64,000 bases of DNA from an uncultured archaeon (GTDB lineage: Archaea; Altiarchaeota; Altiarchaeia; IMC4; SCGC-AAA252-I15), in assembly GCA_902384455.1 (NCBI GenBank), contig CABMCB010000071.1, forward strand, positions 139,315-203,314, given 5' to 3'. The first letter of the stretch is position 1; each line of letters starts with the position of its first letter. The notes beneath the pieces were generated by a model. That model made no database searches and was not told where the DNA came from. It was given only the letters and a program-made list of their open reading frames with translations. A program made the position numbers and the translations under genes. This document shows, one piece after another, positions 58,180-59,421 of this stretch.

Positions 58180-58237
58180 TGAGGAAAAAATATGCGTCAG
58201 CGTATATAAGGCGGTCTAAACCTAACCTTTAAGGCAA

Positions 58238-58381
58238 ATGAAGAAACAGGAACCATCCTCGTCGACTCCAAAGCAGGCGCGGGAGAAATGCCCCATCTGC
58301 CAGAGCGAGTCAATAACCCGTATGGGGAGCCACAGGGAATGCGACAGCTGCGGCAGGCAATGGACGCACATCGCGAAATAA
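58238..58381 (+). CDS. 47-aa zinc-ribbon microprotein (not in the supplied ORF track)
   Basis: MKKQEPSSSTPKQAREKCPICQSESITRMGSHRECDSCGRQWTHIAK*; a CPxC ... CxxC ribbon with a Lys-rich N-terminus. Preferred over the antisense 62-aa ORF 58222-58410. Confidence 0.4.
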   Translation: MKKQEPSSSTPKQAREKCPICQSESITRMGSHRECDSCGRQWTHIAK

Positions 58382-58556
58382 GCGTTTAGTTTATTAACTG
58401 GTATTAACAATAGTTTAGTGCAATTTCACAGGTTACTCAAATATCTGACTATGTTAACGCCCGCAACAACCCGGCAGGCGGCCATGAAGGCCACTATTGT
58501 TCGGACAGTGAGCGGGGCAGCTACTTGTCGTACCGTCCCCACCTTCCGCGTGTAAG

Positions 58557-58636
58557 CGCGGTGTCTGGGGAACAGAACCTTTTCACCTAAGCGGTGTTGG
58601 GTCTGGAGTTTCTTGAGATGCCGTTGTGGTTCCGAC
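58557..58636 (+). promoter_or_regulatory. Copy 1 of an ~80-nt conserved non-coding element (putative structured leader/regulatory RNA)
   Basis: gcggtgtctggggaacagaacc...cacctaagcggtg...gtctggagtttcttgagatgccg aligns with copy 2 at 59069-59148, with indels that break every reading frame. Contains a CACC/GGUG hairpin. Confidence 0.4.
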
Positions 58637-58683
58637 GTTTGAATTACTTGTTTAAGGAACCGATATAGTGAAAAAAGAGGTGA

Positions 58684-58797
58684 GATGAAATGGAACACAA
58701 CTATGGGTACAAAGACCCATATGGCGTGAATAAGGAGAAGGACTATGCTTACGACCCGTACGACCTGCTTCCAAAAGACTGGAAGCAAGCGGCGTAG
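58684..58797 (+). pseudogene. Small ORF paralog interrupted by in-frame TGA (MKWNTTMGTKTHMA*IRRRDYAYDPYDLLPKDWKQAA*)
   Basis: Collinear with the intact 43-aa ORF at 59185-59316 (M.N.T...M ... YDPYxLLPxxWK) but carries a TGA at codon 15. TGA is a normal stop elsewhere in this window. Confidence 0.35.
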
Positions 58798-58887
58798 AGG
58801 GCGTAAATTGTCCACTCCCATTGACATAGGGCTCGAAGGAGGACGCTTGCGTTTTCCTGCTTTAAGCGGCAATACGGCCTCCTTCGA

Positions 58888-58955
58888 AAAACCATCATAT
58901 TTAAATATGAAAACATATACCATACTGAAGTATAATATAAATCATTAAAAATGAG
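58888..58955. promoter_or_regulatory. AT-rich block (multiple TATA-like boxes) between the two element/small-ORF units
   Basis: catcatatttaaatatgaaaacatataccatactgaagtataatataaatcattaaaaatg lies in an otherwise ~58% GC region. Confidence 0.3.
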
Positions 58956-59068
58956 TTCCGCCCTAATTAAACGGGCCTCACGGCAGCATTCTATCGTATT
59001 GAGGCGGAGCTGTACGTCGGTGGGCGGACGTACTAGTCGACTCTGGATTCAGACATCCCGCAAATAAT

Positions 59069-59148
59069 GGCGGCGTCTGAGAAACAGAGTCCGGCCACCT
59101 AAAGGGGGTGGAGGACCTGGATTTTCTTGGGATGCCGCGTGTGGCCTT
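59069..59148 (+). promoter_or_regulatory. Copy 2 of the ~80-nt conserved non-coding element
   Basis: ggcggcgtctgagaaacagagtccggccacctaaagggggtggaggacctggattttcttgggatgccg. CCACC/GGUGG hairpin, with compensatory changes relative to copy 1. Confidence 0.4.
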
Positions 59149-59184
59149 TTCCCTTTTTGACTTCCGTAACGGAGGTTGGAGAGG

Positions 59185-59316
59185 ATGGAAAACAAGACGA
59201 AAACTAAACGGTCCAAAGAGATGCCGTCGGGAATGCAGCGCGTCAAAGAAAGCGTCTACGACCCCTACAACCTACTCCCCGCCGAGTGGAAGACCATAAG
59301 ACCCGAGGAGAGGTAG
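59185..59316 (+). CDS. 43-aa small protein MENKTKTKRSKEMPSGMQRVKESVYDPYNLLPAEWKTIRPEER
   Basis: Intact ORF 37 nt downstream of element copy 2. Its C-terminal motif YDPYNLLPAEWK is shared with the interrupted copy at 58684-58797. Confidence 0.4.
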   Translation: MENKTKTKRSKEMPSGMQRVKESVYDPYNLLPAEWKTIRPEER

Positions 59317-59421
59317 CAAGTCGCCCCACAACATGGGTTGGGGCCGCTTTCCTTTAGCGTGAGCAACAGGAATTTGCCGTCTAACGCAAGTTTTTCTGTT
59401 CGTCCGTCTTCATTTTCTACT

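Follow-up and report, generated by a model that had tools for sequence, protein, structure and literature searches.

Small proteins and small-protein-encoding RNAs (spRNAs) of archaea have been catalogued in Methanosarcina mazei and Haloferax volcanii (PMC11456600; PMC10117724; bioRxiv 10.1101/2025.10.28.685009). Here we describe a locus whose closest known kind is an archaeal small-protein gene or spRNA locus, to which a structured leader of bacterial style is joined. It lies in a 64,000-nt stretch of DNA from an uncultured archaeon (hereafter the window: positions 139,315 to 203,314, forward strand, of the 248-kb contig CABMCB010000071.1, assembly GCA_902384455.1), the proteins of which are deposited under 'uncultured archaeon' (VVB537xx); all coordinates below are window positions. 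The locus holds two paralogous units, each combining a 26-bp bulged hairpin with a small open reading frame (sORF) for a peptide that carries the C-terminal motif YDPYxLLPxxWK. On balance, we consider it probable that these are two paralogous small-protein genes, each with a structured leader whose hairpin would act in cis at the post-transcriptional level. The RNA motif and the peptide family are new, within a known kind of system.

In its sequence, it resembles archaeal spRNA loci, which are lineage-specific intergenic sORFs of at most 70 aa with short transcripts and sizeable untranslated regions (UTRs). These loci often escape annotation; here, one paralog of the pair and a neighbouring zinc-ribbon sORF are absent from the standard annotation. 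The locus differs in that its peptides have no sequence relationship to described small proteins, and we know of no conserved, structure-selected leader hairpin common to paralogs among the spRNA loci of M. mazei or H. volcanii.

With bacterial and archaeal cis-regulatory 5' leaders (riboswitches, ribosomal-protein leaders, protein-binding translational operators), the locus shares a long leader with a conserved element upstream of a Shine–Dalgarno (SD) sequence that is predicted to be occluded, and primary sequence kept at bulges and stems, as for a recognition surface. By contrast, the hairpin here is single and bulged, with no multi-helix junction, obvious ligand pocket or Rfam match, and the occluding sequences are not conserved between copies. 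A riboswitch would have an aptamer conserved with covariation in many genomes and an expression platform switched by the ligand; the locus has a structure-selected element and a predicted occluded SD, in two copies in one genome, without a multi-helix pocket or inferable ligand. Type I toxin mRNAs such as hok and tisB have a tiny ORF behind a long structured 5' UTR that hides the SD, so that the primary transcript would be translationally inert, and often occur as tandem paralogs. The same arrangement is predicted here, with a tiny ORF behind a long, SD-occluded leader in tandem paralogous copies. However, the peptides are strongly hydrophilic (GRAVY -1.51 and -1.47, the top 11-residue hydropathy window being at most 0.00) and have no hydrophobic segment, so that a hydrophobic type I toxin was rejected; no antisense RNA gene is identifiable and PADLOC gave no match.

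The window is archaeal and densely coding, with intergenic gaps normally below 110 bp. The locus lies between fhs (56518-58179, minus strand) and the gene of a YkgJ-like, CxxCxxCC-domain membrane protein (59422-59925, plus strand; PF03692, 23.5 bits). This gap, already described as gene-poor in a first-pass annotation of the window, measures 1242 bp and far exceeds every other gap in the window (runner-up, 275 bp). Two units of ~450 nt within it (roughly 58400-58860 and 58900-59355, plus strand) align end to end with MAFFT and with a global aligner, each running from AT-rich sequence that resembles a promoter to T-rich sequence that resembles a terminator. The first-pass annotation had recognized two collinear units, and the alignment bears this out, as do block patterns found exactly twice: the pattern CTGGANTTTCTTGNGATGCC and the back-translated YDPYxLLPxxW have two matches each in the 64 kb (chance expectation, 0.05 and 0.01). 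The bounds given to the units were too short, however, since both extend further. Identity between the units is mostly 40-55%, and reaches 67-73% over the ~70-nt hairpin block and 67-70% over the 3' part of the small ORF; outside these two blocks the sequence is saturated with changes. The units are an old duplication in which the hairpin and the peptide motif have been kept by selection, their strand and order being unchanged.

The non-coding element is the following pair of hairpins (MFE, minimum free energy):

58558-58624, plus strand: leader hairpin, copy 1 (26 bp, 67 nt, MFE -29.9 kcal/mol, z = -3.6)
59070-59138, plus strand: leader hairpin, copy 2 (69 nt, MFE -39.8 kcal/mol, z = -5.4)

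Either copy folded alone gives the same long, slightly bulged hairpin, and the consensus computed with RNAalifold has 26 pairs in three stacked helices, with a CACC/GGUG helix at the apex. A 1-nt bulge (A) on the 5' strand and a 3-nt bulge, GA(G/U), on the 3' strand (GAG in copy 1) are conserved, in addition to a 1-nt purine bulge. The copies are identical at 50 of 75 columns, in keeping with the ~70% identity first reported, and differ by a 2-nt indel in the apical loop, which argues against a protein-coding block. The original description, a CACC/GGUG hairpin with compensatory changes, was correct in that compensation exists. The CACC/GGUG helix itself is invariant, however: the changes sit in the helix beneath it, and the element is the whole bulged hairpin of 26 bp.

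As a column-shuffle control is powerless with two sequences (139/500), we examined the substitution pattern directly. None of the 26 pairs is broken between the copies: two are doubly compensated (A-U to G-C and C-G to U-A), and six carry one-sided changes that pass through G-U and are compatible with pairing. The 73 aligned columns contain 23 substitutions, 10 in the 52 paired columns and 13 in the 21 unpaired ones. Each of the 10 in paired columns is a transition that leaves the pair intact, whereas those in unpaired columns comprise a single transition and 12 transversions. When 10 substitutions were simulated in paired columns, the probability that all 26 pairs survive was 5e-6 at a transition fraction of 0.33, and 0.01-0.02 when every substitution was made a transition.

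The fold is specific to the plus strand owing to up to seven G-U pairs. Indeed, the MFE on the plus and minus strands is -30.1 vs -16.0 for copy 1 and -39.8 vs -29.4 for copy 2; likewise, a covariance model built from the two copies (R1) scores copy 2 at 97.2 bits on the plus strand vs 10.5 bits on the minus strand, and finds copy 1 on the plus strand only (88.7 bits). The substitution pattern and the strand specificity together fit selection on a plus-strand RNA rather than a DNA palindrome or neutral decay. The proposal that the element is a structured RNA is therefore upheld, and we regard it as highly likely that this RNA is under selection. The stems are conserved in primary sequence too, beyond pairing. 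A perfect hairpin reported earlier is also present:

58546-58561, plus strand: small hairpin CCGCGU-GUAA-GCGCGG (ccgcgtgtaagcgcgg), just 5' of main hairpin copy 1

Its pattern, CCGC...UAA...GCGG, is kept in unit 2 (59059-59074). The 3' arm of this small hairpin includes the first bases of the main hairpin's 5' strand, with which the segment can pair, and an alternative fold is thus possible.

Downstream of the hairpins lie the small ORFs and their SD sequences:

58677-58683, plus strand: SD of ORF 1, GAGGUGA, 6 nt before ATG 58690
58690-58797, plus strand: small ORF 1, 35 aa, intact from ATG 58690 to TAG 58797, MEHNYGYKDPYGVNKEKDYAYDPYDLLPKDWKQAA
59171-59175, plus strand: SD of ORF 2, GGAGG, 9 nt before ATG 59185
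59185-59316, plus strand: small ORF 2, 43 aa, annotated at NCBI as VVB53726.1, MENKTKTKRSKEMPSGMQRVKESVYDPYNLLPAEWKTIRPEER

ORF 2 is as first described. ORF 1, which is unannotated and not in the protein collection, had been taken for a paralog broken by an in-frame TGA; in fact the motif frame is open throughout. The reported TGA arose because the reading began at ATG 58685 (MKWNTTMGTKTHMA*) and was continued in the frame of the motif. The 14-codon ORF that starts there (58685-58729) is in another frame and begins 5 nt upstream of the true ORF 1 start; it is unlikely to be used, its ATG being just 1 nt from the SD. A selenoprotein with a SECIS element was likewise rejected, as the motif frame of copy 1 has no TGA and the reported one lies in the other frame.

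Several lines of evidence indicate that both ORFs are coding. The same type of SD is found 5-9 nt before other leadered genes of the window, including the thermosome gene. The codon-usage log-odds per codon are 0.42 for ORF 1 and 0.26 for ORF 2, compared with 0.29 +/- 0.16 for random 40-codon pieces of real window genes. Within the 16-codon conserved core, differences fall 3/3/10 at the three codon positions, and the 12-codon YDPYxLLPxxWK core has a dN/dS (NG86) of 0.12, with synonymous sites near saturation. Both ORFs therefore show what is expected in sequence of an archaeal small-protein gene, namely an sORF of at most 70 aa, translation signals and selection at the protein level, and they are very probably real protein-coding genes. 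The suggestion that the locus encodes small proteins is thus strengthened by the SDs, the codon usage and the dN/dS, and the ORFs are likely to be translated. The conserved motif, which ends 3 codons before the stop in one copy and 7 in the other, is very probably a short functional peptide element. AlphaFold2 predicts just two short helical turns over the motif, with low confidence (pLDDT 68).

No competing gene emerged from the other ORFs in the units. The antisense ORF of 165 aa has a low codon score (-0.05) and lacks a counterpart in unit 2, and other overlapping ORFs score 0 or lower. Two upstream ORFs, 58418-58555 and 58951-59067, end at a conserved TAA before the hairpins; they score -0.04 and -0.35, and their similarity is unconvincing.

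The remaining features of the units, in which promoters were called with the archaeal TATA consensus, are as follows:

58390-58397, plus strand: AT-rich, TATA-like sequence TTTATTAA, putative promoter of unit 1, aligned with the AT-rich block of unit 2
58628-58661, plus strand: second leader hairpin of unit 1, GGUUCC...GGAACC, not conserved in sequence with unit 2
58833-58887, plus strand: inverted repeat with 13-nt arms, UCGAAGGAGGACG...CGGCCUCCUUCGA, downstream of ORF 1, enclosing a T-rich stretch (58851-58863)
58890-58960, plus strand: AT-rich block of unit 2 (GC ~0.31), putative promoter region
58900-58907 and 58932-58943, plus strand: TATA-like boxes of unit 2, TTTAAATA and TATAATATAAAT, recognized by sequence
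59152-59184, plus strand: 15-bp hairpin predicted to bury the SD of ORF 2
59323-59355, plus strand: hairpin GCCCCA...UGGGGC followed by CGCUUUCCUUU, beginning 7 nt past the ORF 2 stop

The AT-rich block (~58890-58960) had been reported before. Transcription from TTTATTAA would give unit 1 a leader of ~270 nt, and the leaders of both units would measure ~250-270 nt, which is long for an archaeon. The inverted repeat after ORF 1 and the hairpin at 59323-59355 look like the terminators of units 1 and 2, respectively; the T-rich stretches that follow the two ORFs align between units.

The element was compared with known RNA classes. Rfam 15 at gathering thresholds has no match in the whole window, so that the check proposed with the first-pass annotation returned no family, and with E-values allowed up to 10 the best scores over 58100-59500 were 14.8-19.1 bits, against thresholds of 35-65 (E at least 3.4). 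Archaeal C/D-box sRNAs have C (RUGAUGA) and D (CUGA) boxes near their termini and internal C'/D' boxes; RUGAUGA is in neither hairpin, CUGA is in copy 2 only, and the Rfam C/D models reach 14.8-15.5 bits. In archaeal H/ACA sRNAs, the hairpin contains a large pseudouridylation pocket and has a K-turn or K-loop at its apex, and the stem is followed by an ACA box. Here the helix is near-continuous, with 1-nt and 3-nt bulges, the 15 nt that follow each hairpin contain no ACA, and the 3-nt bulge has no flanking tandem sheared G.A pairs. Reading the bulges as a K-turn or as a bulge-helix-bulge did not fit either, by eye and against the consensus. At the protein level, a 46-aa version of ORF 2 that starts at TTG scores 16.7 bits (E = 0.007) with the Pfam family DUF5323 (PF17257), below the threshold of 25, and its 35-aa paralog gives no match.

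We also searched for relatives. Among 5.8 billion cluster representatives (word-indexed), a profile of the peptides retrieved nothing but itself; when HMMER was applied exhaustively to 1.84 billion representative proteins, the only additions were two marginal, unrelated repeat proteins (P0003, P0004). Nothing above threshold was obtained with Pfam, NCBIfam, PADLOC, PHROGs or the PDB sequences. Run over the whole window with filters off, R1 detects just the two copies, apart from a weak match at 41395-41430 (15.9 bits), a short GC hairpin inside a long ORF. The DNA-pattern scans need exact matches at specified bases and would miss diverged homologs. In the GTDB species genomes, the two-block hairpin pattern hit eight bacterial loci, all without P1 and the GATGCC block and with at most 12.6 bits for R1, hence by chance; in the JGI metagenomes, the back-translated motif had one match, also by chance, with a stop codon within the motif. 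The suggested hunt for YDPYxLLPxxWK in other genomes thus ended with self or chance matches only. Three viral scans (IMG/VR) gave chance matches or nothing, and plasmid and phage BLAST searches gave no match.

The neighbouring genes show how thinly this lineage is sampled. The genome and metagenome scans missed the window itself, and this genome is therefore absent from those collections. The YkgJ-like protein has no homolog besides itself, and the 90% cluster of the thermosome protein has one member. The top match for fhs (P0005) is bacterial, of high GC and internally duplicated, and lacks the hairpin element. This bacterial fhs (L015, 10001-12382, ENA ERZ28572136 scaffold_2128) is called at 793 aa with ~235 aa duplicated in tandem inside it; the duplication is probably an assembly artefact and the sole reason for its rank. 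The best real relative by fhs is 64% identical (L016, 21.6 kb), and neither the hairpin nor the motif is found there. As the window is absent from the DNA collections, the YkgJ-like protein without homologs and the nearest fhs at 64%, the orphan status of the locus reflects sampling as much as rarity.

The preferred reading can now be stated in full. Each unit would consist, on the plus strand, of an AT-rich promoter, a long leader, a strong SD, the gene of a hydrophilic protein of 35 or 43 aa and a T-rich terminator. The 26-bp bulged hairpin would be a cis-acting element of post-transcriptional control, recognized in trans by a factor (more likely a protein than a small ligand) that would set the translation or stability of the small-protein mRNA. 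Folding predicts that the SD is mostly paired in both units (unpaired probability at 37 C, 0.16 in unit 1 and 0.00 in unit 2), so that the default state would be translationally repressed. A protein-recognition site is favored over a ligand pocket because the bulges and stem sequences, and not pairing alone, are conserved. An RNA thermometer was rejected since the SD structures do not melt within the growth range, the optimal growth temperature estimated from the proteome being ~22-34 C: in silico, between 25 and 80 C, the unpaired probability stays at 0.00-0.11 in unit 2 and rises just from 0.15 to 0.45 in unit 1.

Four points weigh against this interpretation. The mode of SD occlusion differs between the units, ORF 2 having its 15-bp hairpin and ORF 1 weaker, context-dependent partners that include the UCACCU of the hairpin element itself, and the link between hairpin and translation is therefore putative. 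There are only two hairpin sequences, from one contig, with which covariation has little formal power (see the shuffle control above). Neither the hairpin nor the peptide has a homolog in the collections searched. Finally, no obvious promoter, TATA box or SD was found in the start region of the YkgJ-like gene, and unit 2 might therefore serve as its upstream region.

A bolder form of the proposal, which we put forward tentatively and consider possible at most, is that the hairpin is the founding member of a new archaeal class of cis-regulatory RNAs, gating the translation of a new family of YDPYxLLPxxWK proteins that would act on a cellular partner by way of this short linear motif. As a sensor or operator, the hairpin would then bind either a metabolite or a protein, which might be the small protein encoded downstream, and the family would have gone unseen because genomes of this lineage are almost lacking and sORFs seldom receive an annotation.

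Among the alternatives, the one that survives best, while still unlikely, is that the hairpin is an independent or dual-function sRNA acting in trans, with the sORFs being secondary or the RNA being both regulator and mRNA, as in spRNAs of the dual-function sRNA type. The hairpin of unit 2 is followed directly by the U-tracts CCUUUUCCCUUUUUG (59143-59157), at which a short RNA could end; the apical CACCU of the element mimics an anti-SD sequence; and the conservation of the stems in primary sequence besides pairing would suit a trans-acting RNA. However, unit 1 has no run of at least five U past its hairpin, so early termination is not conserved, and no TATA-like sequence lies directly upstream of the hairpins, the AT-rich stretches being 130-170 nt upstream. 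The coding-type selection seen on the peptides also speaks against this view.

We consider it rather less probable again that the sORFs are leader or arrest peptides controlling read-through into the YkgJ-like gene, in line with the leader-peptide system raised as an option in the first-pass annotation. A Pro/aromatic-rich motif near the C-terminus, as conserved here, is typical of arrest peptides; the terminator-like hairpin 7 nt past the ORF 2 stop would fall within the ribosome footprint, and the YkgJ-like gene has no SD or TATA of its own. Against this, unit 1 precedes unit 2 and not a structural gene, the distance from motif to stop is unequal, the sORFs have no regulatory codon runs and the conserved hairpin upstream is left unexplained. 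To our knowledge, moreover, hairpin-dependent attenuation has not been established in archaea.

That the locus is a decaying duplication or non-functional remnant, as the first-pass annotation had suggested among other options, with the similarity being residual or kept by gene conversion, is improbable. It is true that the locus is an orphan without homologs and that only one of its two ORFs is annotated. Yet both ORFs are intact, the conservation is patchy instead of uniform, all stem changes preserve pairs, and the changes in the peptide core, which is under purifying selection, are concentrated at third codon positions. As for gene conversion, it would leave identical tracts and not ~70-80% identity with compensated changes.

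A still weaker candidate, which we regard as very improbable, is that the peptides are tandem precursors of ribosomally synthesized and post-translationally modified peptides (RiPPs) processed by the neighbouring CxxCxxCC protein. What recommends it is the presence of tandem paralogous short ORFs with a common motif next to a metal-binding membrane protein of the PF03692 family; however, none of the adjacent genes encodes a recognizable maturase (radical SAM, YcaO, lanthipeptide synthetase, protease or exporter), both peptides come with a long structured leader RNA of their own, and neither matches a family. Lastly, a DNA-level feature (a replication origin, or protein-binding repeats around an AT-rich unwinding element) can practically be dismissed: this is the largest non-coding gap in the window, with repeats flanking the AT-rich block, diverging gene orientation and a cumulative GC skew minimum at ~56-60 kb, but the skew tracks gene orientation, the repeats are direct and not inverted around the AT-rich block, the region has no mini-ORB-like match (up to three mismatches to the consensus), the window has no Orc1/Cdc6-like P-loop ORF, and transition-only, G-U-tolerant, strand-specific substitutions are the pattern of an RNA and not of a DNA site.

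At the left edge of the gap stand two further features:

58203-58210, no strand assigned: palindromic TATA-like box GTATATAAGG, putative promoter called from the sequence
58238-58381, plus strand: zinc-ribbon sORF, 47 aa, CPIC...CDSC, from the ORF list

The zinc-ribbon sORF, found where it had been reported, is, if coding, probably a separate small-protein gene outside the duplicated units. Its matches are weak and all under the cut-offs (PF08274, 18.6 bits; NF050000, 22.3 bits), its codon-usage score is neutral (0.01), it is unannotated in the deposited record and its exact sequence is absent from the protein collection. The GTATATAAGG box lies midway between the divergent starts of fhs (58179, minus strand) and of this sORF (58238, plus strand), and could be a bidirectional promoter shared by the two genes; given its spacing to ATG 58238, the mRNA of the sORF would then be nearly leaderless.

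Other observations concern the surroundings. A small gene convergent to the fhs 3' end encodes 153 aa here (56051-56512) and 138 aa in L016 (11664-12080); with fhs, it forms the sole synteny kept between the window and L016, and its product has no family match. On the other side, the genes of a CBS-domain protein, Hsp20 (61446-61907) and the thermosome (61939-63552) are consecutive at 60645-63552, directly downstream of the small-protein locus. This is a chaperone/stress neighbourhood. The 255-aa protein encoded at 59922-60689 (minus strand) has a long Thr-rich tract (~residues 94-131, broken by two Ser and a few other residues) and is probably a surface protein that is secreted or glycosylated; its gene and the YkgJ-like gene share 4 nt at their 3' ends. 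The window also contains a gene for a GCD14/TrmI-type methyltransferase and no tRNA or tmRNA gene. Its GC content is 0.40-0.44 at ~12000-20000 vs about 0.51 elsewhere, and this low-GC stretch may be an acquired or surface-structure gene cluster.

The reach of the finding is limited, since a single contig of an uncultured archaeon is so far its only source. The internal evidence is nonetheless unusually clean for an element in two copies. Few cis-regulatory RNAs and small proteins of archaea are as yet understood by experiment, and the locus offers a compact, internally controlled example, in which old paralogs have kept just an RNA hairpin and a 12-residue peptide motif. It is, as such, a clean target for synthetic or heterologous tests.

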